A stretch of 64,000 nucleotides of DNA from an uncultured virus (IMG/VR IMGVR_UViG_3300028903_000005) (IMGVR_UViG_3300028903_000005); one strand, 5' to 3'. Positions 10,333 to 63,858 are shown, numbered from the stretch's first letter. Made by a program: numbers and translations. The notes: a model not told the origin generated them from the sequence alone.

Positions 10333-10335
10333 CCT

Positions 10336-13720: not shown

Positions 13721-13765
13721 CTTTCTACAAATATTATAAATACTTATACCACCTATTACTATTGC

Positions 13766-15438: not shown

Positions 15439-15699
15439 TTAACTAACGTCTTTATCTTCGTCTTTCACGTCTTTCGGTTTCTGCGCGCGCGGGTACAGAC
15501 CCTTGAATTCGTGGGTATCATATGATTCCGGAAGAAGTTTATCTTCAACAATCAGGATAATTAGTTCGTTAAGAACTTCTGCATAAATCGGTGCTTCCGC
15601 TGTGCGCACTGCGCTGTTAAGCGCGCTGATGAGACGTTCTTTCTTCTGTACATACTTCAATACTTTTTCAATTTCGTCCTTTGTATAATTTTCAGTCAT
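15439..15699 (-). CDS. Hypothetical protein
   Basis: ORF overlapping the upstream RHH-like gene. Confidence 0.6.
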   Translation of the reverse strand: MTENYTKDEIEKVLKYVQKKERLISALNSAVRTAEAPIYAEVLNELIILIVEDKLLPESYDTHEFKGLYPRAQKPKDVKDEDKDVS

Positions 15700-15832
15700 A
15701 TTTATCCATTTCCTCTAATCTTTTAGTCTTCTTCTTAATCGCTTCCTCTGCGACAGTCGGCAGATTAAGACCGCGCGCACGTCCCGCTTCGGCGATCTTT
15801 CTATCGATTTTAATAACTGCATCGCGTGTCAT
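15692..15832 (-). CDS. Small ribbon-helix-helix-like DNA-binding protein (46 aa)
   Basis: Translated by hand: MTRDAVIKIDRKIAEAGRARGLNLPTVAEEAIKKK... Resembles CcdA-type RHH proteins. Divergent from the capsid gene. Confidence 0.5.
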   Translation of the reverse strand: MTRDAVIKIDRKIAEAGRARGLNLPTVAEEAIKKKTKRLEEMDKYD

Positions 15833-15935
15833 GATTTACACATATGTTCCATTTGGAAACATATGTATATAATAACAACCAACTACTATATATACCTTTG
15901 TGTTAGACTTAAAAAGCGAGAGAGGTGCATTTTAC

Positions 15936-16274
15936 ATGTTTGAGAAAGTTACGACTTACCTCAAGAGCGCATACACCAAGGGTATGGAGCTGATTCACGA
16001 CTCCGAGGCAATCGGTGAGGCAACCCTCGCCGGTATCGGTATGGTTGTGGGCGGCGCAATCTTCATCGTCATTGGTATCTTCATGGTCGGCACACTTTTC
16101 AACAGTTTGCCAATTTTGACAGGGATCATGAATACTACCATGTCTAACGCACAGAGCAATGTTTCTCTCGCGTTTACCTTCCTTGGTATTGCACTCTTCC
16201 TGTTGGGAGCGATTGTTTTACTTCTGGAGTTCATCCCGGTAATACGCATATTTGTAGGAGGCGAGAGGCAGTAA
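15936..16274 (+). CDS. Putative major capsid protein of spindle-shaped-virus type (SSV1 VP1-like)
   Basis: Hydrophilic pro-region, then G|EATLAGIGMVVGGAIFIVIGIF (compare mature SSV1 VP1 EATNIGVLLGLFIFILIGIV as I recall it). Two hydrophobic helices, a linker with NTT and NVS sequons, a strong GAGAGGTG RBS and its own promoter and terminator. Confidence 0.72.
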   Translation: MFEKVTTYLKSAYTKGMELIHDSEAIGEATLAGIGMVVGGAIFIVIGIFMVGTLFNSLPILTGIMNTTMSNAQSNVSLAFTFLGIALFLLGAIVLLLEFIPVIRIFVGGERQ

Positions 16275-16288
16275 GCCCTTCGTTTTCG

Positions 16289-16313
16289 AAACGGAGACCA
16301 ATTCTCCGTTTTT
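16289..16313 (+). terminator. Hairpin terminator after the capsid gene
   Basis: AAACGGAGA-CCAAT-TCTCCGTTT followed by Ts. Confidence 0.65.
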
Positions 16314-16319
16314 AAAATT

Positions 16320-17186
16320 TTACTTCTTTTTAAAATATTCCTTTGGTAATATTTGTAACCCATATTTTTGGTGATGACTAATATGAGATTCTTTAAACAT
16401 TGTTATACCATTTCCAATGTCCCATAACTCCTTACATTTTAATGCATCTTCTATTGTTTTGATATTATATTCCTGTATTATTATTGATAATGGTTTAATG
16501 TGATGAACTTCTAAATTGTGATTTCCACGAATTCCCGTAAAACAATCTCTAAAGTCATCTCGTTTCATTACATTATATTTCCATATATACATTTCTGGAA
16601 GTTCACGGATTGCTCTTTCCAATTTTGATACTCCCCCTTTCCAGTTATGATTTCGTTCCCCTCTCATATTATTTCGATGTTCCATAGATTTTGGTTTATC
16701 TTTTAATGCTACACTTATTTTATCTCCGGTTCCCTCTGGCATCTTTTGACCTTTGTTCCACGCTTCCTGACCTTTATGAGCAATACTCATTAAATCTCTA
16801 GTATGTTGTGATGCTTTTTTATTTAAATGTGCGAGTCGATTTGCTTCTAATGCTTCTGGACTATGATGTACATTGTTATGTTTTCCTTTATTAGATTCCC
16901 CTATATGTTTCTTATGGTCTTCTGAAAGCGGAATGTTTTTCTTCTTGGCGCTCATCAAATCTTTAGATGATTGTTTATGTGGAATTCCCAAATTCCAAGG
17001 AGTTCTTCCCTTCATAGATTTACTTAAATTTTCACAATGTTCTTTAGTAAAAGGTGCTTTGGGTTTATTCTTTTGCGATGCACTCATTTTGTCGCGTGAT
17101 GCTTGTGAAGGATGCCTATCGGTATGCCATTCACGATTTTTACGCAACCATTCCTCACGCTTTGATGGGTCTTTTGGTGGTGGCAT
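16320..17186 (-). CDS. NUMOD3-repeat HNH homing endonuclease
   Basis: Repeated NUMOD3 motifs, NHNWKGG, and LEVHHIKP...NGITM...H. Probable start MPPPKDP. Confidence 0.85.
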   Translation of the reverse strand: MPPPKDPSKREEWLRKNREWHTDRHPSQASRDKMSASQKNKPKAPFTKEHCENLSKSMKGRTPWNLGIPHKQSSKDLMSAKKKNIPLSEDHKKHIGESNKGKHNNVHHSPEALEANRLAHLNKKASQHTRDLMSIAHKGQEAWNKGQKMPEGTGDKISVALKDKPKSMEHRNNMRGERNHNWKGGVSKLERAIRELPEMYIWKYNVMKRDDFRDCFTGIRGNHNLEVHHIKPLSIIIQEYNIKTIEDALKCKELWDIGNGITMFKESHISHHQKYGLQILPKEYFKKK

Positions 17187-17188
17187 TT

Positions 17189-17623
17189 TTACTCTTTGAA
17201 TTTTGTAATTATAGCCCCATATCCACATTTATTACATTTTGCAGCAGGGGTATATTTTCCATCAACACTCTTTTTTGATCCATTTCTTTTTATATTTTTT
17301 GATCCACACTTTGGGCACTTCATATCTTCCGATATGTGTTCTATATGCTTTCCATACATTGGGTTTTTATCCCCCATTTTAGATTTGCTAATATTCTCAC
17401 AATGTTCTTTCGAACGCGGGGGTTTTGATTTGCCTTTTAAAGAATCGCTCTGTTTTCTTTTTGTTTCTTCCGATGCTGTCATTCCCTTATTCCAAGGTTC
17501 AATGCCTTTGTGCGATTCACTCATTTTGGCTGTGGTTTCTTTTGATGGGTATTTATTGATGTGAGATTGTTTTTGGCGTTCTAACCAAATTGCGTATTTT
17601 TCTGGATCTTTTGGTGCAACCAT
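17189..17623 (-). CDS. NUMOD3-repeat DNA-binding protein with C-terminal Zn ribbon
   Basis: NUMOD3 motifs (SEETKRKQSDSLKG, KNPMYGK) and CPKCG...CNKCG. Confidence 0.75.
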   Translation of the reverse strand: MVAPKDPEKYAIWLERQKQSHINKYPSKETTAKMSESHKGIEPWNKGMTASEETKRKQSDSLKGKSKPPRSKEHCENISKSKMGDKNPMYGKHIEHISEDMKCPKCGSKNIKRNGSKKSVDGKYTPAAKCNKCGYGAIITKFKE

Positions 17624-18250
17624 ATTTAGTCCCCGCGCGGTTTTGTTTTCGTCATATCCAGTCTTTCTAGAAAACAACTTCTTCCCAATGCTTCAATACA
17701 TTCAACTTCACACAATTCTTCAAATGGGCAATCAACATCTTTAAATGCAGGAGAATTGTTTGCAAGATCAAAAATGATAAAGAATGCCTTTTTAAGTTCA
17801 TCTTTAGAAACAGGTTTTATTTTAGACATATTTTTACTCCTTTCAACCAATAATCATATTTTTACACTTTGGACACATGTAACCAATAGGCATCCATGTT
17901 CGTATACCATTCTTTTCTACGCGAATATATAACCGTTTCATTTTGCCATGCGACGGTTCATCGCTGGTCTGTTTTGAATTGCAGATCATATAATATGGTA
18001 TACACTATAAGTATTTAAATGTATCGGTTTATGTGGTAGAAACTTAAAAAGGGTGTTATAGTAATTAGAAAATTTTATTCTCCCTCGTGCCCTCAACCGG
18101 GTCGCGCGTAAACCAATAACAAATAATTTCTCTCATAGAAGTTACCGAGTGAGGTTCATTTCTCTCATGACGGATATTACAATCGTATCCAGTCAATCTA
18201 CACTTTCTGTTATTGTATCGTGTGCATTGGCGGATGAATTTCATATAATA

Positions 18251-18472
18251 TTACACTTCCCTCAAAAACTCCTCATACTCATCTTTAGAAAAACCGTCAC
18301 TAATAACAGATCCATCCCAAGCAATTATTAAACCATATCTTAAGTTCCCCATTTCGTAAATATCTGCTACTTTACCAATAGACCCGAGCGGGATCTGGTA
18401 GAATGGGATTTTGGTAATAACGGTTCCACCGAGTTTGGATTTTGCCTCTTGCAGGGTGAAGTAGGTGGACAA
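18251..18472 (-). CDS. Small hypothetical protein (possible SH3-like barrel)
   Basis: 73 aa, beta-rich, with IPLGSIGKV. Confidence 0.5.
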   Translation of the reverse strand: MSTYFTLQEAKSKLGGTVITKIPFYQIPLGSIGKVADIYEMGNLRYGLIIAWDGSVISDGFSKDEYEEFLREV

Positions 18473-21333: not shown

Positions 21334-21984
21334 ATGACAATGGTTACGAGCCAAAAGACAAAATCCGGAACAACTGTCTTTGTAGTTGGTGGCGCACGTC
21401 AAGAAAGAAATAAAGCATTGGATTATCTTTTAAAATATTACAATAGAAATTTTACTGTTGCCGAGCAAAAAACTATAGGTAATATATATTATGATTTGTT
21501 AGCTGGAACCAGTAAAGATTCCGCTGGCAAAACCATTGCAGAAACCGGAACATTTGTTGGAAAAATGGCAAAAGAGATGAATCCGACAAAAAAGAAAATG
21601 GTGGATTTATATGTTTCAAAAGATGGTAGAACTAGTGAACATACCATCACCCATGAATTAATTCATGCAAAAAAGTTTATGTCCGGTGTAACAGGAGATA
21701 AACACAATGAGAGAAAAATTGATTTTGAAGCGGTTGGGAGGGTATCAAGAAACGGTCTTAAGCGCGAAAATATGCATGGATATTATTTCTCCCCTTTAGG
21801 AAACAAAACGTTGGCAAAGAAAAAAATGTCTAATTCTGAAAAGGGGGAAATTGCATATAAAGGGGTGTTGGATGACCGTAGGTTATTAACGGGATCATTA
21901 AACACCAATATTGTTGGTATCAACGCAGAAAAAAAAGCAAACAAATTGTTTCCGAAGTCATTCTTTAATAGGGGGAAGTTTTAA
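21334..21984 (+). CDS. Basic zincin-like metalloprotease-motif protein
   Basis: TITHELIHA...HNE motif. Confidence 0.6.
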   Translation: MTMVTSQKTKSGTTVFVVGGARQERNKALDYLLKYYNRNFTVAEQKTIGNIYYDLLAGTSKDSAGKTIAETGTFVGKMAKEMNPTKKKMVDLYVSKDGRTSEHTITHELIHAKKFMSGVTGDKHNERKIDFEAVGRVSRNGLKRENMHGYYFSPLGNKTLAKKKMSNSEKGEIAYKGVLDDRRLLTGSLNTNIVGINAEKKANKLFPKSFFNRGKF

Positions 21985-33852: not shown

Positions 33853-34515
33853 TTAAGTTTTCATTCTCACTTTAAACCCATCAAAGATTTCACTCATTCT
33901 TATATCATACAAGAAATCTTCAAACGGTTTAATATTAACCTCATCGGGAAGCATTGATTTTTCCTTTGCGACATCAAGAAGTCTAAACCACTTTCCGATA
34001 TTCTCATTTGTCACTTCATCTTCGGGAGGTTTGAATTCAATTTTGTGGTTCATCAACATTGTAACACCAAATTGAAGTGTTCGCATGGTTGTTGCTTTGC
34101 TTTTCATTGGATCTTTCACAGTTGCGCGTTTTATAGCATCATTAAGTTGTGAATGTGCCATTCCGTTGATTGATGCATATGATGATTTTGAGATATTGTT
34201 AATAGTGATTTCCCGGAGTTTTACAAGCCACTCGCTGTCCATATGAACAATTGGCGAACAAACATTCCATATTGCATTGACATTGCCTTTCTTAAGCAGA
34301 TTAACAAGATGTCCGATTTCCATATACTGCGCATCAATTTCTTTACCTTCGTAAATATAAGACTTTGCTGCACGTGTCTTTTCAAATGTGCTGCTACGCA
34401 GGTATTCGGAGGATGGTTGTTGGAATACATGGAACAGATCATAATCACTGGAAAGGGTTTCCATCCCCCACATGCGTGAGCCTACTTCGGTGATGAAAAG
34501 GTAGTCGGTGGTCAT
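33853..34515 (-). CDS. Pol-beta-superfamily nucleotidyltransferase (RlaP/YcgL-like)
   Basis: GSRMWGMETLSSDYDL (GS...DxD) and EIGHLVNLLKKGNVN motifs. Confidence 0.8.
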   Translation of the reverse strand: MTTDYLFITEVGSRMWGMETLSSDYDLFHVFQQPSSEYLRSSTFEKTRAAKSYIYEGKEIDAQYMEIGHLVNLLKKGNVNAIWNVCSPIVHMDSEWLVKLREITINNISKSSYASINGMAHSQLNDAIKRATVKDPMKSKATTMRTLQFGVTMLMNHKIEFKPPEDEVTNENIGKWFRLLDVAKEKSMLPDEVNIKPFEDFLYDIRMSEIFDGFKVRMKT

Positions 34516-37049: not shown

Positions 37050-37325
37050 TCATTCAAACACCCCCTCGTTATCCTTCAAAACCTGAAACAACTGCGTTGC
37101 CAAAGTCTGAATTACACGGTGTTTGAGTTTCAATTCATTCTCTTCATTGATAACTTCAATCACTTCATGCAAAAGAGTAGCCAATGCCATGTCGTGTTGG
37201 AGCGTTTCATCCAAGTGAATAACGGCAGATCCGAAAATGATTTTTCCGGAAGCATCAATAACTTTAGAATCGGCGGGAATTATTTTATATCTAACCCCAC
37301 CAATTTTAATATCATCGGGCATCAT
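37050..37325 (-). CDS. Small zincin-like protein
   Basis: TLLHEVIEVI (HExxE variant) with IKIGG.RYKI N-terminus. Confidence 0.6.
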   Translation of the reverse strand: MMPDDIKIGGVRYKIIPADSKVIDASGKIIFGSAVIHLDETLQHDMALATLLHEVIEVINEENELKLKHRVIQTLATQLFQVLKDNEGVFE

Positions 37326-37672
37326 AAAAGTTTTAACCCCTTTGTTATATTATCTATTTTTTCATCTTCGTCCGGTCCAATCGCAATGCAAGTAAGAGTA
37401 TTTGGGGCGATTTGTGTAAGGCCGAAATCCCGAACGGGATTGACTTGCAGCTGATTGAATAACGCCATTTCTCCAATCCGTTTAAGTTCGCGTTCATCAA
37501 CAACTTTTAACACAATTTTCTTTTGTCCTTCGGAAAACCATTGTTCTCCTTCATGTGTTCCATTTGCCATACGATAAGCAATAACAGAAGCGTGGCCAAC
37601 TTGCCCTGCTATTTTACCACAGGACATATCTAAATCTTTACGAACAACGATTGCTAATTTCATAAAAAGCAT
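37322..37672 (-). CDS. pth2: Peptidyl-tRNA hydrolase 2 (archaeal/eukaryotic type)
   Basis: VVRKDLDMSCGKIAGQVGHA, GQKKIVLKV, VRDFGLTQI...T.IAIGP and IDNITKGLKLL motifs. Confidence 0.93.
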   Translation of the reverse strand: MLFMKLAIVVRKDLDMSCGKIAGQVGHASVIAYRMANGTHEGEQWFSEGQKKIVLKVVDERELKRIGEMALFNQLQVNPVRDFGLTQIAPNTLTCIAIGPDEDEKIDNITKGLKLL

Positions 37673-43049: not shown

Positions 43050-44387
43050 TTATGATAATTTATTATTCCCTTTTATAATCCCTTTCATTCGCGCTTCTGC
43101 AATCTCACAAAAATGTGAATCGCTATCAATCATAATGCATTGAAATCCTTCCAGATATGCGGCAAGACCCGTGGAACCCGAACCACAGAAAGGATCTAGA
43201 ACAACACCGTTTGGTGGTGTAATTAATTTACACAAATACCGCATTAATGATATTGATTTGACTGTAGGATGATCATTTTTAGATCCGTTTGTTCTTCCTG
43301 CACCAGCGCGTGGGGAATTTAAACCAGCAGAACCTTCTACGCGATCTGTACATTCCCCTGCTGTTTTATGTGGAAGATTTTCGCAACCGATGTTTCGTTC
43401 TGATGGTGACGGTTTTGCACAATAGAAGAAGCGAGCGGCGGAGCCGGAATCACAACGTATCCATTCTTCGCGAACCAATTTACGATTGAATGGTTGAATT
43501 GCCCAAGTATCTTTTTTAATTTTATCCTTCGCGCCTCCGCCACTCATGCCCATTGCTTGTGGAAACAACGCCAACACTTCATCACTACCATCGTGAATAA
43601 GATTGGCGGGGAATCGGCCCGATGATACTACACCAGCACCCGTGTCACCTTGCACCAATCCATTACTTCTAAAACCTTGTGCATTTCTTACAAGGGGATT
43701 GCTTGTAACCAACCCTTCAACCCTACACCCATCGATATTAATCCCACCAACACCATACTCTAAAACATTCTGCGCAATCGTTCCTTCCACGGGTTTCCTT
43801 AACAGTATCCAATCTTCGTGCGCGGGTTTGAGTGCGGTTCCCCAACCGTTCCATTGGATAGCGGCATCCGAAACGGGTTTGTTATCAGTAGTAGTATGTT
43901 CCCCGATCATAGATCGTTCAATAGATCCTTGGTGTTCTCTCAGCCCATTTTTAACATGCCACTCTGCTAACATGTCTTTATCTGAAGAAACCATCTCTCG
44001 TAAAGATACCCCTCTTCTATTTGGAGCGGCAGGCATTACCAAATCCAAGTCTTTACTAATATTGCGGGATTTCGGAAACCCCGTTCCAAAAATATGTACA
44101 ATACTATCTCTCACCTCAAACCCACCATCCTCCCACGCTGTGGCAGTCCAATGGCTTGTTCTGGGTAAAGACCACACGAGAGCATGCCCACCGGGTTTTA
44201 TTACGCGTAAACATTCTGTAGCAATGCCTGTCATCCATTCTATCCATTGATCGCGTCCACCTTTATCGTGATCCCAAGACTTCCCCATAAATTTTATTCC
44301 CGCTGGAGGATCGGTAACGATAGAGTCTACACTATTTTCATCCATTCTTTTTATTACTTCTTTACAATCTCCACAGATAACGGGCAA
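43050..44387 (-). CDS. Beta-class N6-adenine/N4-cytosine DNA methyltransferase
   Basis: VTDPPAGIKFMGKSWD, GWGTALKPAHE, RFFYCAK, HPTVK and LDPFCGSGSTG motifs. Confidence 0.92.
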   Translation of the reverse strand: MPVICGDCKEVIKRMDENSVDSIVTDPPAGIKFMGKSWDHDKGGRDQWIEWMTGIATECLRVIKPGGHALVWSLPRTSHWTATAWEDGGFEVRDSIVHIFGTGFPKSRNISKDLDLVMPAAPNRRGVSLREMVSSDKDMLAEWHVKNGLREHQGSIERSMIGEHTTTDNKPVSDAAIQWNGWGTALKPAHEDWILLRKPVEGTIAQNVLEYGVGGINIDGCRVEGLVTSNPLVRNAQGFRSNGLVQGDTGAGVVSSGRFPANLIHDGSDEVLALFPQAMGMSGGGAKDKIKKDTWAIQPFNRKLVREEWIRCDSGSAARFFYCAKPSPSERNIGCENLPHKTAGECTDRVEGSAGLNSPRAGAGRTNGSKNDHPTVKSISLMRYLCKLITPPNGVVLDPFCGSGSTGLAAYLEGFQCIMIDSDSHFCEIAEARMKGIIKGNNKLS

Positions 44388-47071: not shown

Positions 47072-47404
47072 ATGAGTTTTTCTGATACTAATAAAAGTAA
47101 CTCATCTCCCATGTCAGTAGGCACCCCAAAGGATAAATACGTTGATTTTTTCTTTAATCAATTCGGGTGTTACACTAGCATATTGAGGTCGGATGTTAAT
47201 GAGAAAGAATTGGATCGGGCAACAGCAGCACTTATTGCTATCTGCCCCGACAATAAGATACGAGAAGAACTGTTCAAAAAATACACGGATAAGAAAAAAG
47301 AGTCTGGTATAGTAACCGCATCCGCTGGACTAGCTGGTAACTTCATGTCATATATATCTGACACGCTGGAGTTTACCGAAAAAAGTTATGCATCGGTGTT
47401 CTAA
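47072..47404 (+). CDS. Hypothetical protein upstream of the ATPase
   Basis: TATA element upstream; TAATG coupling to the ATPase. Confidence 0.7.
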   Translation: MSFSDTNKSNSSPMSVGTPKDKYVDFFFNQFGCYTSILRSDVNEKELDRATAALIAICPDNKIREELFKKYTDKKKESGIVTASAGLAGNFMSYISDTLEFTEKSYASVF

Positions 47405-48381
47405 TGGATCTCACCAAACCAATTGTATTGGAAAGCGGGATTGTGGATCTGGGATGTTCTAACAGGTCTGCCATAATCAGACTTGCTAATTGGGCACAAG
47501 ATCTTATTGACAATAAAAAACCAATCCCTAGAAGTCCATTCTGCAAATGGGCGGCAGAGCGTGTTGCTTCTAAAGATAAACAAGATTTGACTATCTTTAT
47601 ATCAGCACGCAAGGGCAAAGGCAAATCTTATACAGCACTCTATCTTGCTTCGCGCATTGCTGATGAGATTGCGTTGTTACTTGGTGGGAAACAATCCGAT
47701 TACTTTACAATAGAGAACTGTGCACTTCTCATGGATTCATCAAAGATTACCAATCTATTGTCAACTAAAGGCAAATATCAAGTTTTGATTATTGACGATG
47801 CCGGTGTTGGAGCAAACAATAGGGAGTTTTTATCTCGTGGTAATATTAACTTTAATAAGATTATGATGACATGCAGAACCAAACGGTGGGTTGTAATATT
47901 CACATCGGTTCTTAAAAGTCACGTTGATTTAAATATTCGCGAAATGAGCGATGTGTTAATTAATATTTATAAATCGTTTCATGTGGGTGGATTTAACATT
48001 TGTAAGGCAAAAAATTCGGACGTTGTAGAATTACCAAATAACAAAAACGTGACAATTTCTAAAAGATTATCGTTTGATAAAGATAATAAAAAAATTGATT
48101 TCTGGGTCTCGTTTGCACCAGATAGAGAACTTGCTGAAGAATACGACCGTCAAAGAGATGTAGCAGCAGATAAGATTTTGCAAGAATCCAACGAACAATT
48201 AAATGAAAAACAATCAGGGAAAACAGAAACAAAACAACAGGAATTATTCACAAAATATTATGACACTGTAAAGAAACTCTTCGAAACCGAACCTGATATA
48301 AAATCCAGAGAAGTGCTTCGGAGATGCCCGGGGTTAACATTAACATATTTGGATAAAATGAGAGCACAAGGAGGATTCTGA
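47404..48381 (+). CDS. P-loop ATPase (Zot/packaging-type, as in spindle-shaped viruses)
   Basis: Walker A ARKGKGKS, Walker B LIIDDAG, CRTKR and VDLNIRE motifs. Confidence 0.8.
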   Translation: MDLTKPIVLESGIVDLGCSNRSAIIRLANWAQDLIDNKKPIPRSPFCKWAAERVASKDKQDLTIFISARKGKGKSYTALYLASRIADEIALLLGGKQSDYFTIENCALLMDSSKITNLLSTKGKYQVLIIDDAGVGANNREFLSRGNINFNKIMMTCRTKRWVVIFTSVLKSHVDLNIREMSDVLINIYKSFHVGGFNICKAKNSDVVELPNNKNVTISKRLSFDKDNKKIDFWVSFAPDRELAEEYDRQRDVAADKILQESNEQLNEKQSGKTETKQQELFTKYYDTVKKLFETEPDIKSREVLRRCPGLTLTYLDKMRAQGGF

Positions 48382-49524: not shown

Positions 49525-50370
49525 ATACCAAAAGTAGTAGAACACATTATAAAAATATGCCCGACGTGTGGTAAAGAATTCAATACTACTTTAAATGAAA
49601 TGTCACGTGGGAAAGGTAAATATTGCTCAAGAACATGTAAAGATAAGTCTAAAAGACAAAGAATAAAAAGAAAATGTCTAACATGTGGGAAAGAATTTGA
49701 AATAACGAAATTTGAACTTTTAAACGGTAAAGGCAAATATTGTTCTTTAGAATGTTATAATAACACACCTACAAGAAAAGTTAATAAAATTTGTGTGGTT
49801 TGCGGGAAAGAATTTTTGGTATATCCGTATCGTGCAGAATCGGCTTTATATTGTTCATATGATTGTTATCATAAAGATGCATCAATTCGGTTTTGTGGAG
49901 AAAATAACCCCAATTGGAATGGTGGGGGAAGAGAATATTGCGAAAAATTTAATAATCCATTCAAACGAAGAGTTGCAGCATTTTGGTATGAAAATAACGA
50001 AAATATATGTCCAGTATGTGAAAACCCAATAGAAAGCGAAACGCCACATTGTCACCATGCATATTATGATAAAAAATCGTGTTGTCTAACAAGTTTGGAT
50101 GGAAAATATTTTTCTGGATTGGGCATAAAAAATAATGAAAAATTGTTTGAAATAATAGGAAATCCAAATAAATTTGTACCTTTGCATGGAAAATGTCATG
50201 GTAAAACAAATAGCAAATTTAAACGGGTGTTTTATGCACGAAAATTTGAAGCGCTTATAAATGAAAAATTTAATGGACAATCATATTATACTGAAGAAGA
50301 ATATACAGAATTTTTAATTCGCCACCCAGAGTGGGAAATACCATATAAATCACACAAACGAAAAAAATAA
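49525..50370 (+). CDS. Zn-finger-repeat HNH-like endonuclease; start inferred at ATA 49525
   Basis: Three CxxCGKEF...YCSxxC repeats, NPNWNGG, and CPVC...HH...CH motifs. Confidence 0.75.
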   Translation: MPKVVEHIIKICPTCGKEFNTTLNEMSRGKGKYCSRTCKDKSKRQRIKRKCLTCGKEFEITKFELLNGKGKYCSLECYNNTPTRKVNKICVVCGKEFLVYPYRAESALYCSYDCYHKDASIRFCGENNPNWNGGGREYCEKFNNPFKRRVAAFWYENNENICPVCENPIESETPHCHHAYYDKKSCCLTSLDGKYFSGLGIKNNEKLFEIIGNPNKFVPLHGKCHGKTNSKFKRVFYARKFEALINEKFNGQSYYTEEEYTEFLIRHPEWEIPYKSHKRKK

Positions 50371-54189: not shown

Positions 54190-54193
<4 letters not shown>

Positions 54194-54753
54194 ACCTCTT
54201 CCAATTTTGGCATCGTTGGAATCACTAACGAATCATACATTTTATTTTTTATAAGTATTTTAATAATGGTAGAATACCATATTGTTTCCTTTTTAATAAG
54301 TTTTTCTGCTAACACTTCTATTTGTTCTCTATTATTATTTACAATTTCTTTTGCTACTTCCAATGTAGAAATATATAATCTTCTCTTACACGGTTTATAT
54401 GATTGTGGATAACTTTTATATTTAGTTGTTTTTAATGTATTATATATCCAATCCAATTCAACACATGCGTTATTAAAATCCGCTTTTCCACCACAATTAA
54501 AATAATATTCTTCTGTTCCACACAACAACATATCCTGATTAAATATTATAGATTGGGCGAGTGGGCCAGTGAGAAAGACAATAGCGCGCGCAAGTGGGGG
54601 GCCATCTGTATAACCTTCTAATTTACCCCAAGAATTTTTGCTTTGTTTAATAGTTACCCCGTTGAATTTTTGATTTAAAACAATAGCAGCAATAGCATGT
54701 CCGGATTCATGATATGCAGCACAACGGGTTTCGTAGAGTGGGCGTTTTAACAT
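54190..54753 (-). CDS. Peptidase M41-like (stand-alone FtsH protease domain) protein
   Basis: AYHESGHAIAA, LTGPLAQ, G.AD and LAEKLIKKETI motifs. Confidence 0.75.
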
Positions 54754-54817
54754 TGTAAGTAGTATATGTTTTGATTGTATTAATAAGTTGTTGAAAAATA
54801 GGAAATTGTAATAATTT

Positions 54818-55231
54818 TTACTTACACTTCCCAACAATCTCTTCAAGTTCCTTTTCTTTATTGATCTTGTAAAGAATCTCTCTTTCAAATTTTTGTATAG
54901 CACGATCTATAATAATATTATCTTGTTCCAGAGTTGTTTTGCGAATTATTTTACCACCAACATCGTGCATTGTGGTATCAATATAATATGCAGAATCACC
55001 ATCAAGATTATCTAATAACAATTTTAACGAATGTAACATAAAACATGAAGCCGCAATCGCTGTTGTTAAAAATAATGTTATATTTGACTTTAACTGAAAT
55101 GTGATGATTGCTATTCCCACCCCTATTATAAAATAAAATAACCAATACAACGAAATATCTTCTTCTTTATCAATAGTTATTTCCCTAATATATATTATAT
55201 AATTTCCAACATTCTTTAATGGAGTAGACAT
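54818..55231 (-). CDS. Two-TM membrane protein
   Basis: Two hydrophobic segments. Confidence 0.6.
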   Translation of the reverse strand: MSTPLKNVGNYIIYIREITIDKEEDISLYWLFYFIIGVGIAIITFQLKSNITLFLTTAIAASCFMLHSLKLLLDNLDGDSAYYIDTTMHDVGGKIIRKTTLEQDNIIIDRAIQKFEREILYKINKEKELEEIVGKCK

Positions 55232-56063: not shown

Positions 56064-56330
56064 ATGACCAACTACGGACAAACTGCAAAAGAACTGGAAG
56101 AGGAATTTGAACGGGAAGAAGAACCTATCGAACAAGAATACATAAGGACATTCCCGAAGAAACACAGTAGTTTAATTCCACGTGTAAAAACCGGTGTTAA
56201 ACTTCCAAATACTATGGAATATATGGGTAGAATGGATTCGTTGAAAGTTAATATTCCACACTCTGATATTTATAACAAAGAATGGAGAAATTTTAATACT
56301 TCGTTGTTGGTAGGGAAGAAGAGGAAATAA
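56064..56330 (+). CDS. Hypothetical protein
   Basis: GGAG RBS; ends FNTSLLVGKKRK. Confidence 0.65.
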   Translation: MTNYGQTAKELEEEFEREEEPIEQEYIRTFPKKHSSLIPRVKTGVKLPNTMEYMGRMDSLKVNIPHSDIYNKEWRNFNTSLLVGKKRK

Positions 56331-56621
56331 TAAAAAATATATTTTTAGATATCAATTGAATATTTCATCTTTGCAAGTTCAAGCGGAATCCTACCAAGTT
56401 TCGGGCTGTATTCTCTCGATCTATGATTATTTCCACAAGAGATATCTTTAATTTCAATCATCGTTGATGGTTTTAACTTTTTTACTTCTAAAGATTCCAT
56501 TCCGCACCAAGTTTTAGAACCCGGAAAACGCACCATGAAGCGACTGCTGTTCACCAAACTTTCACCTCTATAAACAAAAACATATTATATATGTTGTCTT
56601 TCATATTTATAAACCTTTCGG

Positions 56622-59600
56622 TTACTTTCTCTTTTTCTTCTGTGGCAACGACGAAGGCAATGATATTGATCTAATGCCCGTGGTTGAAGATGACTTTTTA
56701 GTAATACCAATGTTGGGCATACTAAATGATGGCATTTGTATAGATGCTACTTTCTGTTGTACTGCACGCTGTGCAGGAACCACTTTAACGGGCTTTTGTT
56801 GCACTTTAGTTGGTTTCTGTAATGAGAATGATGGTAATGATGAACCCGGGCCGCGTGTTACGTTGGAACCCCTTCTCAAAGCCTTTGTTACTGCTACTGC
56901 TGCCAAGACTGGGGTAAAGGGATATTCGAATTTTTCAACGTGTTTTTTGTATCTCTTTTTCTTATCCCTTATTCCGCCACTCCCGTACAAATTACCACCT
57001 GTGGGGAGAATCGGAATTGGCGATCCGGGACTCGGGGGTTTTGGTGTTGATGGTGGCAAACTGGTTGGAATGGAGGGAATAGATGGGGGAGAAATCTTTG
57101 TGCTTGAAGGTGTAGATGGTATATTAGGCATCGATGGGCTTCCCTCTTTCGGTGGAGATGGTGGTGAAAATATAGAAATTGATGGAACTATTGGAGAAAC
57201 TATTTTTGATACGGACGGTAGACTTATTTCTGAAACCGATGGTATAGAAGCAACAGATTTTAAAGAACCCAATGATGAAGAAAACCCCTTTGGTATTTCA
57301 GAAGATTCTTTTGAAACTGATTTGCTAATAGATTTTTCAATCGGTGATATATAACCACTCATATCTTTAGATAAACTCATCTCTTTGGATGGAGCAGATA
57401 ACATTTCTGATGTAGCAATAACACTTTTTAATTTAGAATCGCTCGGTTTCAAACTACCAACACCCATTAATGGAGAATATTTTGGAATGGCGGTTGTAGA
57501 TAAAGAACCAATGATTGATGCGCCAGACATCACGGGTATTCTTACAGATTTTACACCGGTTGATGAAGGCACAGACAAATCGATGTTAAATTTTCCACCA
57601 ACATAGTTTTGTCTTACTTTTGTAGATGCATCCTTCCCCCATAAATCTAACCATTGTTCTAAATACACATCTGCTTTTGCTGCCTTTGCTCTAGTTAATG
57701 GATTGGAAGATTTGCTCATTAATTCTATATTGCCCTTTTCTCCAATATAATAATCTCCTATATCTTTCATACGTCCTTCAAATCTAGGAGCAATTTTTCC
57801 AGTAACAGAAAATACTTCTGGCCCACCTTCATATCCTTTGCCAGTAACGGTTCTCGGTTCTGGAGTAATTTCCATTGCACCAGATGCCTTTCTCCCAATT
57901 TGTTCAGCATATGGCATTACTTCTAATCCTTCAGTAGTACTTACATATTTCTGTGGTTTCATACCAAGACCGAAATAACCCGAAGATGATCTAAATGGAC
58001 TTGTTTCTTGCTTTAGTAATTTGTTGACGGTTGGATTTTCATTGTGTATATCAAATAATTTTCCACTTCCGTCTGACATTTCTACTGTGCCATCTTTAAC
58101 ATAAACCACCTTTTTACCAGCGGCTTTATTTATAGCAGATGTAACATCTTGTGCATATGAATCCCCCATTGATTGTAAAGACGATGTTTTGGATGTTGTT
58201 AGTTTGCTCTTTATTCCTTCTATCAACGACAATTTTCCCGGTTGCCCTGCTTCAGAAGGTATCATAACATCAAGATCATTTGGATTGCGAAGCAATGTTG
58301 TAACTCCACGTTCTATTCCAACCGCCTTCTGCCCAGCGGAACCATATAATTTTGCGCCATAATCAAGAGAAGTTTGTAAAATTGCTTCGGTAACTTCTGC
58401 CGAATTCGGGAATTTTCTTGCTTTTACAACTTCTCCTATCGCTGTAGATGCTTGATCATACTTTGCTCCGGAACCAGAAGTGATTTCATGGGTTTTATAC
58501 ATCAAATCTAATTTTGGAGATTCTTCGGGTGCTATATATTTTTTACCAATGGCAACTTCCAATGGAGATTCCATCGCATACGTGGAACCCTCGGTTTTAA
58601 ATTTAAACATCTCTGCTGTTGGTTTTGGAATCCCAATATACACATTTTTTAGTGTGGATACGGCTTTAACAGCACCATATTTTAAATTCGGTAATAATTG
58701 TGGAGAAGTCGAAACATCTAATATAGCCCACTTCTCACCAGATGGTGAAACAACATTTTCTACATTTTTTAAATATAGTTTCGTTTCTGGTGCAACCACA
58801 TATTCTTCTTCTAATCCCAATCCTTTCCACGGCTTACCAGCAGCGGCACGAAGACCCGGATATAATTTACCCGGCGGTAATGTTGCTGCAACATCAGCAA
58901 AATTCCTTCCATATGCTCCACTGCTCTTTATTTTACCCACGGCGCTAGCAAATTCCGGCGTGATTTCCGGAGTTGTTCTTAATCGCAATGCTACTTTTGT
59001 TCCGGTTTCACCAGCATACTGTTTAAGTATTGTACCCGGATCCCCAAAGAATAATGCACCTTCTTTTCCACCCTTTCCAACAACAACCTCTCCTGTGGTC
59101 AAGAGTTGATTTACAAATGCGTTTTCAGGAGTAACATGATAGAAATCCGATACTCCACCTTTAGCAAGAGTTGTATATCTTTGGGCTGCTTGACTAGCAT
59201 CCGCAAAAGTATTCATCTTCGTAGTAAATGATATATCTTTTGCACTACCTTTTAAAAGGTTTGAACCAATAATAACATCGGTGGGAGAAGTTGTTTTTCC
59301 GCCTACACCAACCAAAGAAGATGTTAATTGTTCAATCTGTTTATCAGCACCAGATAATTTCGAAACGACAAGTGAAGTATATTTAGCAGTTGGTGTTTCC
59401 ATTCCTTTTGACGAAATTATTTCCGCGCGTTGCAATCCGATTCTATAAGGCTGTGCTTCATATAATTTTCCCCCACCCTTAAACAATAAATATTGACCAA
59501 CCAATGAACCCGCAAACTTTGCTGGATTTGTTGTTGCTGATTGATACATCCCACCTGCTTGCATTGCAAGACCTGCTGTTGCCAATCCAGCAAATGTTGA

Positions 59601-61568
59601 TGGATTACGCAATATTGTTTCTCCACCGACCAAAGCAGATTGCCCAAGTTGTGCTACCATTTCCGGGGTTGATGTTAAACCTGATATTACACCCCCGGGA
59701 ATACCCCACCCAGATACAGCAGTTTCTATAGGTGCTTGAATATTAGCAGAATACCATTTTCCAACATCTCCAATATTAGAACCAAGTCCATACGTTAACA
59801 ATTTTGTTTGATCTACATTTCCCGTTAATGGAGATGCAGATTTGACATAATGGGATTCTGCTGTATCTATTTGCCCCTGCAATGTAGAAATTTTTCCATA
59901 TTGCGTATCCAAATCTGTTTTCTGCGAGGTGAGGTTTTCATATTCTTTTTGCGTCGGTATAGCACTTTGTTTATTAAAAATATCCACGTTTTTACTATAA
60001 GTATCAATTGAAGATTGTAAATTTTTTTGTTGTGATATTAAACTATCATATCCCTCTTGTGTTGGATTTGCTTTATAAGATTCGAGATTTTTATTATATA
60101 TTTCCGATTTTAATTCTATATCTTTTTGTTGTGTCAACAAATTATCATAACCTTCTTGCATCTTATTTGCATTTATATTATATGAATTCATATTTTTATT
60201 ATATGCAACCAAAGATTTTTCATAATCTGGCATAAGAGCATTAATTTTTTCTGTGTTTATAGAAGAAACCTTTTGATAATCATAATAAGATTCTGTTGCT
60301 GCACCACCCTGTGATATTCCAGACAAAACATCACTAGCAACAGGCAATTTTGTTTCTGTTCCCAATTTGTACACAGATGATAAAACAGGAACTTCTCCCG
60401 ATGGAACTTTTGAACCAATATCATAAATATTACTTAATATTGGAGTGGCTTTTATAACATTTGAAACATCAGTGAATGTGGATGGGATATTTGTGCTTCC
60501 AATAGTAGCATTTTGTGTTCCGGTCGGTCCCCCCTTATTAAAAACAACCGCGCTGCCCGGAACCACATATAATCCACCCGCCATCGGTTGACTTTTCATC
60601 GTAACATCGGGGCCAGTACCAGAAAATTGTGCAGGCATTGTAGTAACAACCGACCGTGGAACATTAGTTTCCCACGACGCCATTACGTTACCAACACTTT
60701 CCGGCGTAATACTCTTCACACCCGTCCCACCATACAAAGCACCATACGGCCCTTCGATACCTTCCGCCGCTTGCAAAGCCGCCAATCCCGGCATAAAATT
60801 AACATTTTCGTTTTTACCTAATGCGGTATTCCATTGATGCTGTTGAACACCCATCGTTCCACCGGGTAAATATCTGGACATCTCCCCGCTAACAGGAGGA
60901 AACACATCGGATCTGGTTATAGGAGCACCTTTCAACAACTCCACGGCAAGATCCGCTTGGTATTCATAAGGATTCGCCGCCACTGGTCTTCCCGTTTCTT
61001 TGGCCATATAATGATACTGGCTAGCTGCTTCTATCGGTTCTTGAATTGATTTAGTTAACTCATTTTCATAAAAACTTTTTGCCCTACTATCGGTTGCTGC
61101 TTGTCGTTGTTCTTCTAATGTATACCTCACAGCATCGTCATATGAACCGAATGGTTTGTTTGGTTGATTCATTAATTCTTTTGCGCGCGTTTGTGTTGCA
61201 GCATCTCCCAATTCGGTTGAAGCATAATAACCGGGGCGCGTTTCCACAGCCCTATACATTGCTGGAGGCAACGCGGGGTGAACGTTAGTATCATAATCAT
61301 ATTCTTGTGCTGCCGAAGGAGGAGTTGCCGTTTGAGCAGCAGCGATTCGTGCTACACTCGGATCTACAACACCTCCTGTTTTTCCAACCAATTGTGCAAT
61401 TTCGGCAGCCGTGTTACCGGACATTGCGGGTTGTGGCGTGTCAACAGTGTGCGCGTTTGCTGGTGGACTACCACCACCCTCGTAAGTAATTTGACCGGTA
61501 TATGCAGATTGATAACCTATGATATTCCCACCAGAATCCCTAACAGCATATGAAGCATAAGATCCCAT
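56622..61568 (-). CDS. Giant multidomain protein: coiled coil, hydrophobic helices, putative ADP-ribosyltransferase, putative nucleotidyltransferase, S/P-rich tail
   Basis: 1648-aa ORF. ART-like FYHVT...ALFFG...EEEYVV; Pol-beta NTase-like LYGS...NDLDV...LFDIH. Confidence 0.85.
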   Translation of the reverse strand: MGSYASYAVRDSGGNIIGYQSAYTGQITYEGGGSPPANAHTVDTPQPAMSGNTAAEIAQLVGKTGGVVDPSVARIAAAQTATPPSAAQEYDYDTNVHPALPPAMYRAVETRPGYYASTELGDAATQTRAKELMNQPNKPFGSYDDAVRYTLEEQRQAATDSRAKSFYENELTKSIQEPIEAASQYHYMAKETGRPVAANPYEYQADLAVELLKGAPITRSDVFPPVSGEMSRYLPGGTMGVQQHQWNTALGKNENVNFMPGLAALQAAEGIEGPYGALYGGTGVKSITPESVGNVMASWETNVPRSVVTTMPAQFSGTGPDVTMKSQPMAGGLYVVPGSAVVFNKGGPTGTQNATIGSTNIPSTFTDVSNVIKATPILSNIYDIGSKVPSGEVPVLSSVYKLGTETKLPVASDVLSGISQGGAATESYYDYQKVSSINTEKINALMPDYEKSLVAYNKNMNSYNINANKMQEGYDNLLTQQKDIELKSEIYNKNLESYKANPTQEGYDSLISQQKNLQSSIDTYSKNVDIFNKQSAIPTQKEYENLTSQKTDLDTQYGKISTLQGQIDTAESHYVKSASPLTGNVDQTKLLTYGLGSNIGDVGKWYSANIQAPIETAVSGWGIPGGVISGLTSTPEMVAQLGQSALVGGETILRNPSTFAGLATAGLAMQAGGMYQSATTNPAKFAGSLVGQYLLFKGGGKLYEAQPYRIGLQRAEIISSKGMETPTAKYTSLVVSKLSGADKQIEQLTSSLVGVGGKTTSPTDVIIGSNLLKGSAKDISFTTKMNTFADASQAAQRYTTLAKGGVSDFYHVTPENAFVNQLLTTGEVVVGKGGKEGALFFGDPGTILKQYAGETGTKVALRLRTTPEITPEFASAVGKIKSSGAYGRNFADVAATLPPGKLYPGLRAAAGKPWKGLGLEEEYVVAPETKLYLKNVENVVSPSGEKWAILDVSTSPQLLPNLKYGAVKAVSTLKNVYIGIPKPTAEMFKFKTEGSTYAMESPLEVAIGKKYIAPEESPKLDLMYKTHEITSGSGAKYDQASTAIGEVVKARKFPNSAEVTEAILQTSLDYGAKLYGSAGQKAVGIERGVTTLLRNPNDLDVMIPSEAGQPGKLSLIEGIKSKLTTSKTSSLQSMGDSYAQDVTSAINKAAGKKVVYVKDGTVEMSDGSGKLFDIHNENPTVNKLLKQETSPFRSSSGYFGLGMKPQKYVSTTEGLEVMPYAEQIGRKASGAMEITPEPRTVTGKGYEGGPEVFSVTGKIAPRFEGRMKDIGDYYIGEKGNIELMSKSSNPLTRAKAAKADVYLEQWLDLWGKDASTKVRQNYVGGKFNIDLSVPSSTGVKSVRIPVMSGASIIGSLSTTAIPKYSPLMGVGSLKPSDSKLKSVIATSEMLSAPSKEMSLSKDMSGYISPIEKSISKSVSKESSEIPKGFSSSLGSLKSVASIPSVSEISLPSVSKIVSPIVPSISIFSPPSPPKEGSPSMPNIPSTPSSTKISPPSIPSIPTSLPPSTPKPPSPGSPIPILPTGGNLYGSGGIRDKKKRYKKHVEKFEYPFTPVLAAVAVTKALRRGSNVTRGPGSSLPSFSLQKPTKVQQKPVKVVPAQRAVQQKVASIQMPSFSMPNIGITKKSSSTTGIRSISLPSSLPQKKKRK

Positions 61569-61804: not shown

Positions 61805-63058
61805 TTAACTATATGGTTTCACTAACACGGGGGAGGGAGAACTATACCCCGTCTTATTTGCCCACACATAATAAAAGTGATCTGAAGTCAATCCTGTAAG
61901 TACTGCAAGACCGCGTGTATTACTTGTTGCAGTAGATATAACCGATGTGGTTGTGTCTTGCGCGTAATACGTTGCACTTGAAATAGGGTTTCCATATAAA
62001 CTATCACGCACAATGCCAACAATACGAGTATTACTATATTGTGCCGTTGGGATTAATGGTATTGTTAAATTGATTGGGCCACTTGCTAACGGAGTAAATG
62101 TATTAACATCTGATGCATATCCGCTTTTATTAGTCATAATTGTTAGTGGGACACCATAAGTTAAAGATGCACTATCCATATTAAAGGAGCCGTCTGCTGC
62201 CGATGTTGCAGAATACACAATTCCGGATTGTGTAGCATTTATAACAGCACCCGATATTGCAGAAGACGTATATGCATCAACAACATATCCCATAGGTATA
62301 ACCGATGTTGAAGAAGAATCATATGTGATTTCTACGTAACCATATGCACCGTTCCCCCCGGGGCCGCCAAGAGCGAAGTGACCAGCAACCGGGCTACCAG
62401 CGCCCCCGCCTCCTCCTCCAGCACCATTACCAATTCCACCGGGTGAACCATATGATGTACGTAAATTATCCGATGTTGTTCCAGTAATACTATTCAATCC
62501 ACTATATGCAATTTGATAATTACCATAACCATTTGCACCTCTAGAAGAACTCCCCGAACTTAATGTTACAACATACCATCCGCCATCACCGGATGGGTAA
62601 CTATGCCAAGATATATATGGGGCAGCCCCGCCTTCAGCAATATAACCAAATGCAGAAGAATTTCCTCCGGGTTCCCCATAATAATAATATTGAATGCCAT
62701 CTGTTCCCACTAAATATTTACCATCAACCCCTATACCCGGTTTTCCAACTATTATAGAATAAGATTGCCCCGGAGTAACAGGAATATTGCTTTGTGTTAC
62801 GTATGTACCAGCATTGCCACCAGCCCCATTCCCAGATCCAATAAAACCACCAACTTGATTATAAACCCAATAATATCCACCAACCCCCCCGGATCCACCA
62901 CCAATCATTTTTATTGATACAGTGGTCACATCAGAAGGGCATGTCCATATACCATCTTGCGTAAACGAAACTGTTTGTGAAACAGCTAAAGAGGGGGTTA
63001 CTAATAATATTGTTGCTAATAGTAAAACAATATATTTGAAATTCATAATCCAAACCAC
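61805..63058 (-). CDS. Secreted glycine-rich-domain protein with Ig-like (carboxypeptidase-regulatory-like) domains; putative adhesin or tail protein
   Basis: Signal peptide, F...G.WTCP..VT.V....IGGGSGG, VTPGQSY.I.VG, and two G.V.D....I..A...NK.GY repeats. Confidence 0.8.
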   Translation of the reverse strand: MVWIMNFKYIVLLLATILLVTPSLAVSQTVSFTQDGIWTCPSDVTTVSIKMIGGGSGGVGGYYWVYNQVGGFIGSGNGAGGNAGTYVTQSNIPVTPGQSYSIIVGKPGIGVDGKYLVGTDGIQYYYYGEPGGNSSAFGYIAEGGAAPYISWHSYPSGDGGWYVVTLSSGSSSRGANGYGNYQIAYSGLNSITGTTSDNLRTSYGSPGGIGNGAGGGGGGAGSPVAGHFALGGPGGNGAYGYVEITYDSSSTSVIPMGYVVDAYTSSAISGAVINATQSGIVYSATSAADGSFNMDSASLTYGVPLTIMTNKSGYASDVNTFTPLASGPINLTIPLIPTAQYSNTRIVGIVRDSLYGNPISSATYYAQDTTTSVISTATSNTRGLAVLTGLTSDHFYYVWANKTGYSSPSPVLVKPYS

Positions 63059-63351
63059 CCAAGTATAGTTTCTATAATGCCTTTGTTATTTTTACTCACG
63101 GTGATCATTTCGACATAATTTTCATATCTCACCATATATGTATCATTGTCTGGAAAAGATAATAATAAATTCCCGTTTTGTGGAATATCTGATGTATATA
63201 AATATGTTACATTGAAAGTAGAGGGCACGGATATGTATTGTTCTCCACCGTAAGTAATACTCACCAATTTATAATCTTCTGCTAACACGGGGGATATAAC
63301 TAAACATGTTAGAAACATTAATATTAATATTTTTTCTTTCATTTCAAACAC
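63043..63351 (-). CDS. Small secreted protein
   Basis: N-terminal signal peptide. Confidence 0.6.
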   Translation of the reverse strand: MFEMKEKILILMFLTCLVISPVLAEDYKLVSITYGGEQYISVPSTFNVTYLYTSDIPQNGNLLLSFPDNDTYMVRYENYVEMITVSKNNKGIIETILGWFGL

Positions 63352-63399
63352 CTTTATATATGATAATAGTTTTAAGTATTAAAAGGTTTTGGTTGTTTA

Positions 63400-63858
63400 T
63401 TATACATTCTTAAACATTGACATTACTATACCAGTGATTGAAGCTAGCAAAGCCCCGAATGCAAGGGGCTGAATAACAACCGGCATTGTAATTCCAATCC
63501 CATCGGAAAATAAGAATGCACCCGCGAGTAGGAGACCTGTGATAGATGCAAGTCTCAAGTTAGCATGTGATAGCCACATCCCGATGTAGATGAAGAAAAA
63601 AATTAAAAATGAGGGAACAGATAAGCTGCCCATTGTTGTCCACGCATAGGGGGAAAGAGCGTTTTGTGGGAATGTTATAATAGAGAAGTTGGAGGAGGTA
63701 AGATTATCAAAGGCTTTACCATACGTTGTAACTTCTAAAGGTGTAATCGTGGGTGTGGGAGTAATAGTTATATACGGAGGCGAATCTGCTTTCACCAACC
63801 CGACAATACTACCAAGCGCGCATAATGTTGGAATTATTTTAGAGATAATAGTATCCAT
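63400..63858 (-). CDS. Membrane protein (signal peptide, TPTP linker, 3 TM helices), putative virion protein
   Basis: Hydrophobic segments and N-glycosylation sequons. Confidence 0.75.
   Translation of the reverse strand: MDTIISKIIPTLCALGSIVGLVKADSPPYITITPTPTITPLEVTTYGKAFDNLTSSNFSIITFPQNALSPYAWTTMGSLSVPSFLIFFFIYIGMWLSHANLRLASITGLLLAGAFLFSDGIGITMPVVIQPLAFGALLASITGIVMSMFKNV

Follow-up and report, generated by a model that had tools for sequence, protein, structure and literature searches.

Almost all polyvalent proteins of more than 1000 amino acids (aa) are bacterial (PMC5512222), and most known particle-borne effectors come from tailed phages (PMC9503650, PMC5512222). T4 Alt is packaged in the head and injected (PMC5512222). 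Genome delivery by most archaeal viruses has been called obscure (PMC10791045). The DUF1814 nucleotidyltransferases (NTases) are defined by four motifs: motif I is hG[GS], motif II R-xxx-D-x-D, motif III a lysine and motif IV +DxxD (PMC3985639). MenT3 adds to the 3'-CCA ends of tRNA (PMC7450476). Here, we describe a gene at positions 56622–61568 of a 64,000-nucleotide stretch of DNA (the window) from an uncultured virus, IMGVR_UViG_3300028903_000005. Its 1648-aa product combines a predicted ADP-ribosyltransferase (ART) domain with a predicted NTase domain. With a little more confidence than doubt, we regard it as a particle-associated scaffold that delivers a tRNA/RNA-modifying NTase and an unusual H-F-ExE ART.

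Layout and predicted enzyme domains of the giant protein

The open reading frame (ORF) and its domain layout are as follows.

56622..61568, minus strand: gene of the giant modular protein (1648 aa), in which neither a signal peptide nor a classical transmembrane segment was seen; no Pfam or PHROG match
60279..61568, minus strand: mosaic low-complexity N-terminal region, aa1–430, with sub-modules common to different relatives
59799..60278, minus strand: Q/K/E/N-rich probable coiled coil, aa431–590, judged by composition; weak coiled-coil-type Pfam matches (E 0.1–1.8)
59475..59753, minus strand: G/A-rich amphipathic helix module, aa606–698, with an NP-x-x-x-AG motif at its end; scaffold common to all enzyme classes
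59274..59456, minus strand: three-stranded beta subdomain, aa705–765, directly before the ART insertion point; strands from the model, at low predicted local distance difference test (pLDDT) values of 45–61
58689..59243, minus strand: predicted ART-fold domain, aa776–960, with H811-x-T813, G837-x-x-F-F and E920-x-E922; block pLDDT 73–94
57594..58637, minus strand: predicted Pol-beta-fold NTase, aa978–1325, with G1076-S1077, R1094-xxx-D1098-x-D1100, D1173, K1227 and K1268-D1269-xx-D1272; pLDDT 90.7
56622..57593, minus strand: S/P-rich disordered-type tail, aa1326–1648, with K/R-rich clusters, by composition

Translation of the minus strand agrees with a sequence-only reading of the window, which had proposed the 1648-aa ORF, and the motifs it named lie where it had placed them: FYHVT at aa809 (59144), GALFFG at aa837 (59060) and EEEYVVAPETKL at aa920 (58811) in the ART domain, LYGSAG at aa1074 (58349), NDLDV at aa1097 (58280) and LFDIH at aa1171 (58058) in the NTase, and KKKRK at aa1644, the C-terminal end. 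Its S/P-rich tail is confirmed by an S+P content of 37–49% over aa1351–1550. The G/A-rich hydrophobic helices are present but are not classical transmembrane segments: over 19 residues, hydropathy peaks at 1.34 (aa1448) for the protein as a whole, too low for a classical membrane anchor. ART-like and Pol-beta NTase folds, also proposed there, agree with the structure predictions described below, and conservation of the motifs in homologues, which it had named as a test, was found for both domains. In the mosaic region, aa1–140 matches the relatives P0043, P0013 and P0002, and aa141–300 matches P0072, P0047 and P0060. Neither the protein nor its domains matched anything in Pfam, PHROGs, PADLOC or PDB sequences. 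In 5000 block shuffles the ART pattern arose 0 times, the basic NTase pattern 12 times and both together 0 times; this control is weak because the patterns were composed after the sequence was seen.

The ART model covers aa700–980 (alignment of 11 sequences) and the NTase model aa978–1330 (54 sequences); a joint ART+NTase alignment (A3) misaligned the ART-less rows and was not used for folding. Columns with at least 90% identity number just 37 of 281 in the ART alignment and 29 of 353 in the NTase alignment, so that the conservation of the motif residues given below exceeds chance.

The ART model has a mean pLDDT of 78, with 73–94 across the insert. Compared with 48,161 chains, its first 21 matches are all ARTs or proteins bearing an ART fold, among them lymphostatin, lethal factor, RHS2 and SidE, which we take to have this fold. 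The best match is Tre1 (6drh; Z 6.4, root-mean-square deviation (rmsd) 3.3, 97 residues aligned), followed by ExoS and Vis (Z 6.0), with DarT, diphtheria-like and PARP domains at Z of about 3. Foldseek retrieves the same class at E 3e-3 and weaker. The predicted ART fold is thus supported by the agreement among matches, no single score being decisive. H811, T813 and E922 are conserved in 11/11 ART-bearing sequences and E920 in 10/11; the second motif is G-[AGM]-x-[FY]-[FS] in the family, and the first-motif residue is His in 11/11. By motif, the putative triad is H811, F840/F841 and E922, an unusual H-F-ExE type. The domain has the ExE glutamate and, in the model, the fold of the R-S-E ARTs, and it lacks their strand-1 Arg and strand-2 S-x-S; nor does it show the H-Y-D of the Tox-ART-HYD2 type. 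The analogy with T4 Alt drawn in the sequence-only reading therefore fails at the level of the triad, which fits neither R-S-E nor the polyvalent H-Y-D. No ART relatives were found among 2368 candidates of 30–905 aa, and the Atlas lead for this domain (DUF4765, 0.86) is sub-threshold.

The NTase model (pLDDT 90.7, predicted template modelling score 0.89) is closest to the poly(A) synthases of Mimivirus (Z 8.3, rmsd 3.8, 152 residues aligned, 14% identity) and Megavirus (Z 7.7; PDB ids of the pair 4wse, 4p37). A fungal NTase (5uvd, Z 6.7), JHP933 (Z 6.1) and, at Z 5.1–5.9, TM1012, LnuA, ANT(2''), MenT1, MenT3 and MenT4 also match, with some helical bundles intruding. Among viral proteins, the model matches one of 1125 aa from a Nitrosopumilus spindle-shaped virus (E 5.9e-5) and another at E 1.4e-9 (TM-score 0.53). 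All four DUF1814 motifs, as defined in PMC3985639, are matched; motif III has its lysine and follows the remaining KLxAaxxR consensus in part. With this full set of DUF1814/AbiEii motifs the domain differs from the minimal NTase of polyvalent proteins. Among the 54 aligned sequences, G1076 is conserved in 50, S1077 in 52, R1094 in 51, D1098 in 53, D1100 in 53, D1173 in 54, K1227 in 53, K1268 in 54, D1269 in 54 and D1272 in 52. All ten checked positions are intact in 48/54 rows; of the six other rows, two are fragments. The query NTase has no match to DUF1814/AbiEii profiles in Pfam or PADLOC; a divergent relative, P0087, matches our NTase profile (E 2.7e-5), PADLOC AbiEii (E 0.003) and DUF2204 (E 0.027). 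The Atlas points to the Mimivirus-type PF19244 (0.92, with PF19244 on 22% of members), which gives no Pfam match for the query. Given that MenT3 acts on tRNA 3'-CCA ends, we rank tRNA/RNA 3'-end modification first among the activities that the predicted NTase may have, before tailing and then protein NMPylation.

The modular family, its gene slot and probable host

Searches with aa600–1340 gave 12 proteins and 82 cluster representatives, which, with the product of the syntenic contig L001, make a family of 87 distinct proteins; this sample contains fragments and is skewed by the choice of query. With profiles built in this work, 52 carry the NTase only, 18 a different ART-like domain only, 9 ART and NTase, 2 the window-type ART only (one weak, one probably truncated), and in 6 no enzyme was detected. 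The tandem of ART and NTase noted in the sequence-only reading thus exists but is not a fixed pairing. The helix-module profile (aa606–698) matches 53/87 proteins, and at least 6 K/R per 12-residue window within the last 200 aa are found in 51/87. The beta subdomain is also present in the ART-less close relatives P0009–11 and P0013–15, where it leads into the NTase within about 30–45 residues; the ART is accordingly an insert. A quick tree built from 50 NTase domains, without fragments and short or split matches, places the 8 ART-bearing proteins together on one side of a branch (SH-aLRT 97) nested in ART-less lineages, which is consistent with gain of the ART by a single, later insertion. P0002 is a mosaic: aa1–554 are 89% identical to the ART-less P0013, and from aa509 it is 73% identical to the window protein (P0001).

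Other inserts occur on the same scaffold. Class I methyltransferase (MTase)-like domains are found in P0040 (Pfam E 0.009) and P0007 (E 0.18). By eye, and presuming the family names from their motifs, we assign HNH-like inserts to P0010 and P0066, JAB-like inserts to P0019, P0054, P0075 and P0085, and a GNAT-like insert to P0047. P0019 carries two NTase domains. P0075, P0085 and P0087 have divergent NTase domains; P0075 appears by eye to have two, with the JAB-like domain between them. The second ART-like domain (pattern W/Y-T-A..S-E..G-x-x-[GA]-A-P..E-Y-E-A) is carried by 18 proteins, among them P0012, P0041, P0047, P0048, P0057, P0060–63, P0065, P0067, P0068, P0070, P0073, P0076, P0077 and P0081. 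In profile-profile comparison it does not match the window ART (hhalign probability 0.15) and is therefore called ART-like only from its by-eye motif. This exchange of enzymes on one scaffold suggests an interchangeable weapon delivered into infected cells.

The virus context is given by the following genes of the window.

47404..48381, plus strand: spindle-virus-type morphogenesis ATPase (TPV1 ATPase E 3e-5; LSV-48N CDS23 E 8e-6)
15900..16274, plus strand: candidate two-helix major capsid protein (MCP), matched by LSV-48N CDS20 (E 0.003); no PHROG match
61805..63858, minus strand: co-oriented upstream genes, with a tail-fibre-assembly PHROG match (E 4e-5), for a 417-aa Gly-rich exported-type protein, a 102-aa and a 152-aa protein

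Known here from its genes alone, the virus is probably of the spindle (lemon-shaped) type. It has both a two-helix MCP candidate and a His1/SSV-type ATPase, the former being the weaker, and it also encodes PolB, ribonucleotide reductase, an integrase and one tRNA. In L001 the upstream run goes on past small membrane proteins as far as an adhesin with PKD-like repeats (named by eye), so that the giant gene ends a co-oriented series of adhesin, small membrane proteins and giant. In two further contigs, L013 and L016, an NTase giant is flanked on one side by MCP-like and membrane genes and on the other by an adhesin gene. L016 holds at 3838–18442 an apparently integrated spindle-type structural module, in an archaeal metagenome-assembled genome (MAG), with an NTase-only giant and a recombinase-like gene recognised by eye. 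L013 shares synteny with LSV-48N, a lemon-shaped virus that has been imaged: CDS10–14 and CDS16–23 all have homologues there, and its NTase giant occupies the slot of CDS15, between the homologues of CDS14 and CDS16. The ATPase match and this synteny bear out the spindle-type context suggested in the sequence-only reading, and domain layout and family modularity its polyvalent-like architecture. With tblastn, the GenBank phage collection gave no match for the window NTase, the MCP candidate, the L016 giant or P0087.

CDS15 consists of a low-complexity head, G/A helices and a P-rich basic tail, without an enzyme domain, and is the top match of the helix-module profile among 37 proteins (E 0.013). 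By our own assignment, from length counted from Met146 (679 aa), mass and gene order, it would be protein P_03685 of the LSV-48N supernatant proteome. P_03685 was detected with 52 peptides, 81% coverage and 475 spectra; it is the best-covered viral protein and fourth of 13 by intensity-based absolute quantification (PMC12714723). Tebi-SV1 VP27, the top of six viral proteins in virus preparations (PMC13612827), may belong to the same slot; the gene numbering of that paper is inconsistent, and we do not count VP27 as evidence.

The host is probably one of the Methanomicrobiales, because PolB is 53–60% identical to Methanoculleus/Methanoregula MAG proteins (the closest cellular-type PolB in five genomes tried) and NTase homologues are present in contigs binned to both genera. 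The contig with the giant gene has 110,670 bases and L001 138,951 bases. Both are far longer than the 72.6 kb cited for the largest spindle-shaped virus of ANME-1 (PMC9894754) and may count among the largest genomes of the spindle type.

Two HExxH metallopeptidase-like genes lie at 54190–54903 (minus strand) and 21334–21984 (plus strand), with Pfam matches to Peptidase_M41 (E 4e-8) and M91 (E 0.003), and both have L001 counterparts (13699–14229 and 15006–15803) just 3' of the giant gene. They are candidates for processing the giant protein, as proposed for polyvalent proteins. A putative small ORF downstream of the giant gene (56064–56330, plus strand) is 68% identical in L001. An RlaP-type nucleotidyltransferase, the second in the window (33853–34515, minus strand; Pfam E 8e-16), an ORF resembling peptidyl-tRNA hydrolase Pth2 by eye (37322–37672, minus strand) and a tRNA-Leu(CAA) gene (13766–13847, plus strand) form a small set related to translation and RNA repair. 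The ribonucleotide reductase is of class II and is found in two ORFs (4684–6018 and 6277–6990, minus strand) with a gap of 259 bases, for which an intron, a frameshift or a split gene are all possible. A DNA methyltransferase (1563–4136, minus strand) contains an intein and a LAGLIDADG-like domain (Pfam E 1e-4, 8e-4), and a second methylase is located at 43050–44387. Several NUMOD3/HNH-type homing endonuclease genes lie at 16320–17677 and 49600–50370, and L001 has another within its structural operon (4386–5432).

Proposed role and its alternatives

The giant protein would be the enzyme-loaded form of a large internal particle protein, expressed from the structural operon. Coiled coil, amphipathic helix module and basic tail would mediate its incorporation; the tail probably binds the genome, and the protein would enter the new host together with the DNA. 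There, the DUF1814/AbiEii-like NTase would most likely attach nucleotides to the 3' ends of RNA, probably at the acceptor stems of tRNAs, or else to protein. The inserted ART would transfer ADP-ribose from NAD+ to a host protein or nucleic acid, or would consume NAD+. Both enzymes would weaken defence or divert translation at an early stage of infection, the scaffold staying constant while the enzymes are exchanged under conflict. Both predicted folds, the intact catalytic motifs, the modular exchange and the position in the morphogenesis block are supported computationally; packaging, delivery, activity and targets are inferred. A more general version, to which we give rather less than an even chance, is that spindle-shaped viruses of halophile, methanogen, thermophile and possibly thaumarchaeal hosts share a hitherto unrecognised giant pilot/ejection protein that serves as a plug-in platform for effectors. 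It would cross the host membrane with the genome, as an independently evolved archaeal counterpart of phage polyvalent proteins, carrying a tRNA-targeting NTase, at least two ART lineages (including the hybrid H-F-ExE), and MTase, HNH, JAB and GNAT domains.

Several observations weigh against particle-borne delivery of such enzymes. The best Z scores, 6.4 for the ART and 8.3 for the NTase, compare with a typical best chance score of 7–8, and Foldseek searches of the PDB with the two models never reached E 0.001. The top NTase match is a viral poly(A) synthase, not MenT (Z 5.1–5.4). The match of the NTase model to the Nitrosopumilus virus protein has a TM-score of 0.23 and an rmsd of 16. The sequence link to CDS15 is weak (its E value of 0.013 was beaten by 1/500 shuffles), pairwise BLAST between CDS15 and the family gave no match, and CDS15 has no enzyme domain. 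The LSV-48N sample is a crude precipitate of 737 mostly host proteins that also contains the viral ATPase and integrase (PMC12714723), and its data therefore show release of CDS15 with particles at best; this enzyme-less counterpart is the best proxy for packaging. A search of 401 genomes for CRISPR spacers, with 20 of the 64 kb as query, gave no link to a host; the matches were of low complexity or to a nuclease, with two short ones outside repeat arrays. Finally, an NTase that poisons translation, with no evident antitoxin, fits a chronic, non-lytic infection awkwardly; the lack of an antitoxin argues for a regulated or selective rather than a lethal activity.

It is unlikely, in our view, that the protein acts in the producing cell without delivery, as a late membrane-associated assembly or extrusion scaffold whose enzymes alter molecules of host or virus while particles are chronically produced, for host control or superinfection exclusion. 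Its position in the morphogenesis block would suit an assembly factor equally well, and the LSV-48N supernatant includes probable non-particle proteins, such as the integrase. However, no viral protein in that supernatant is better covered than CDS15 (81%, 475 spectra), and fusion of enzymes to a scaffold is best explained by a need for co-delivery, as we infer from PMC5512222.

Interchangeable toxin-type domains on a constant scaffold, with toxins such as Tre1 and MenT among the nearest structures, would also be expected of a competition weapon of the polymorphic-toxin kind, with which chronically infected cells, by way of particles or vesicles, would kill neighbours that are uninfected or carry a different infection; chronically SSV-infected cells have been reported to kill (PMC8628083). 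We consider this improbable. The enzymes lie within the protein, ahead of a tail of 320 aa, whereas polymorphic toxins have a variable C-terminal toxin. No antitoxin candidate was seen among the genes neighbouring the giant gene. The only co-oriented downstream ORF (56345–56557, minus strand, 70 aa) is 81% identical in L001, the one comparable genome, where the giant lacks the ART and the NTase is 41% identical to that of the window; it thus does not co-vary with the enzymes as a cognate immunity gene would. In L013, L016 and LSV-48N the genes downstream of the slot encode conserved membrane proteins.

The chance is smaller still that the enzymes are directed at the virus itself, the NTase tailing viral RNA or DNA ends without a template and the ART protecting viral DNA or particle proteins. 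The Mimivirus and Megavirus enzymes are the best structural matches (Z 8.3, 7.7), and the Atlas features, like the annotation of a PBV150 protein discussed below, point to PF19244. Haloarchaea and Methanomicrobiales, though, are not known to have poly(A) tails or an exosome. At least 26/87 family members lack this NTase, which is therefore not a core replication function, and the motif II Arg and motif IV +DxxD, almost invariant here, are specific to DUF1814 (PMC3985639). That the folds are catalytically dead and retained for structure is very improbable: the ART triad is non-canonical and 6/87 members have no detectable enzyme, but conservation is concentrated at the metal- and NAD-binding positions while overall identity is 24–40%.

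Significance and comparison with known systems

In the literature searched, with most subscription papers outside its coverage, neither the modular family nor an ART in a protein of this kind is described. The term 'nucleotidyl' is absent from the available text of PMC12714723, PMC12934983, PMC13612827, PMC10866085 and two preprints (preprint supplements outside coverage). The family singles out one gene slot, which the cultured LSV-48N also has, as that of a candidate delivery scaffold, and offers two discrete, well-modelled enzyme domains with exact residues for mutation. Either enzyme could show new chemistry: the ART has a non-canonical triad, and the NTase falls between the toxins of the AbiEii/MenT kind and the poly(A) synthases of giant viruses. 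The likely hosts are methanogens of wetlands or digesters. A pilot/ejection platform, if real, would give a handle on DNA delivery and on the subjugation of hosts without lysis by spindle-shaped viruses.

An NTase in a matching slot had already been tabulated; the sequence-only reading had known of no virion-delivered effector of this sort from spindle-shaped viruses. Protein 23 (742 aa) of the pletoitzamnavirus PBV150 is annotated 'Nucleotidyltransferase, Poly(A) polymerase' (HHsearch 91.4; PMC9894754, Supplementary Table 10) and lies, in a spindle-shaped virus, between adhesin/small proteins and the ATPase (PMC9894754); the NTase has 0 occurrences in the available main text. Likened to the window protein by annotation and gene position, it has half the length and no annotated ART. 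LSV-48N CDS15 (PP151251; PMC12714723) shares the L013 gene slot and a similar layout and is abundant in virus-containing supernatant; it differs in having no enzyme domain and only a weak profile match.

With the DUF1814/AbiEii/MenT toxins the window NTase shares motifs I–IV, including the motif II Arg and +DxxD (PMC3985639, PMC7450476), and structural matches to JHP933, MenT1, MenT3 and MenT4 (Z 5.1–6.1). It differs in its place within a giant viral protein, in a GS-to-DxD spacing of 20 rather than 15, in having no family HMM match for the query, and in that no antitoxin was seen. The Mimivirus/Megavirus polyadenylate synthases (PF19244) are its best structural match, but only one NTase domain matches, there is no Pfam match, and the domain is dispensable within the window family. 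The nearest ART structures are those of T4 Alt/VIP2 and other R-S-E ARTs (Tre1 6drh, ExoS, Vis), which share the ExE motif; in the window ART the first motif has His where theirs has Arg, S-x-S is missing, and the domain is fused to a multidomain scaffold.

Polyvalent proteins (PMC5512222) are likewise large viral polypeptides in which unrelated enzymes are joined and which are encoded beside particle genes. The window protein has at least two disparate predicted domains in one polypeptide, and its viral gene lies near particle genes. The kinds of domain shared are ART, Pol-beta NTase, MTase and, by eye, GNAT and JAB/RadC. In contrast to them, the window protein comes from an archaeal spindle-type virus and has its own helical scaffold, its ART is H-F-E rather than H-Y-D, and its NTase, of about 320 aa with DUF1814 motifs, differs from their minimal NTox45-like type (PMC5512222). 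LPD and MuF domains gave no Pfam match in the giant protein, with 33 and 19 ORFs of an incomplete genome scanned. As the ART type differs and no detected family domains are shared, we would place the giant protein as an independent archaeal variant of the polyvalent kind rather than a member by descent.

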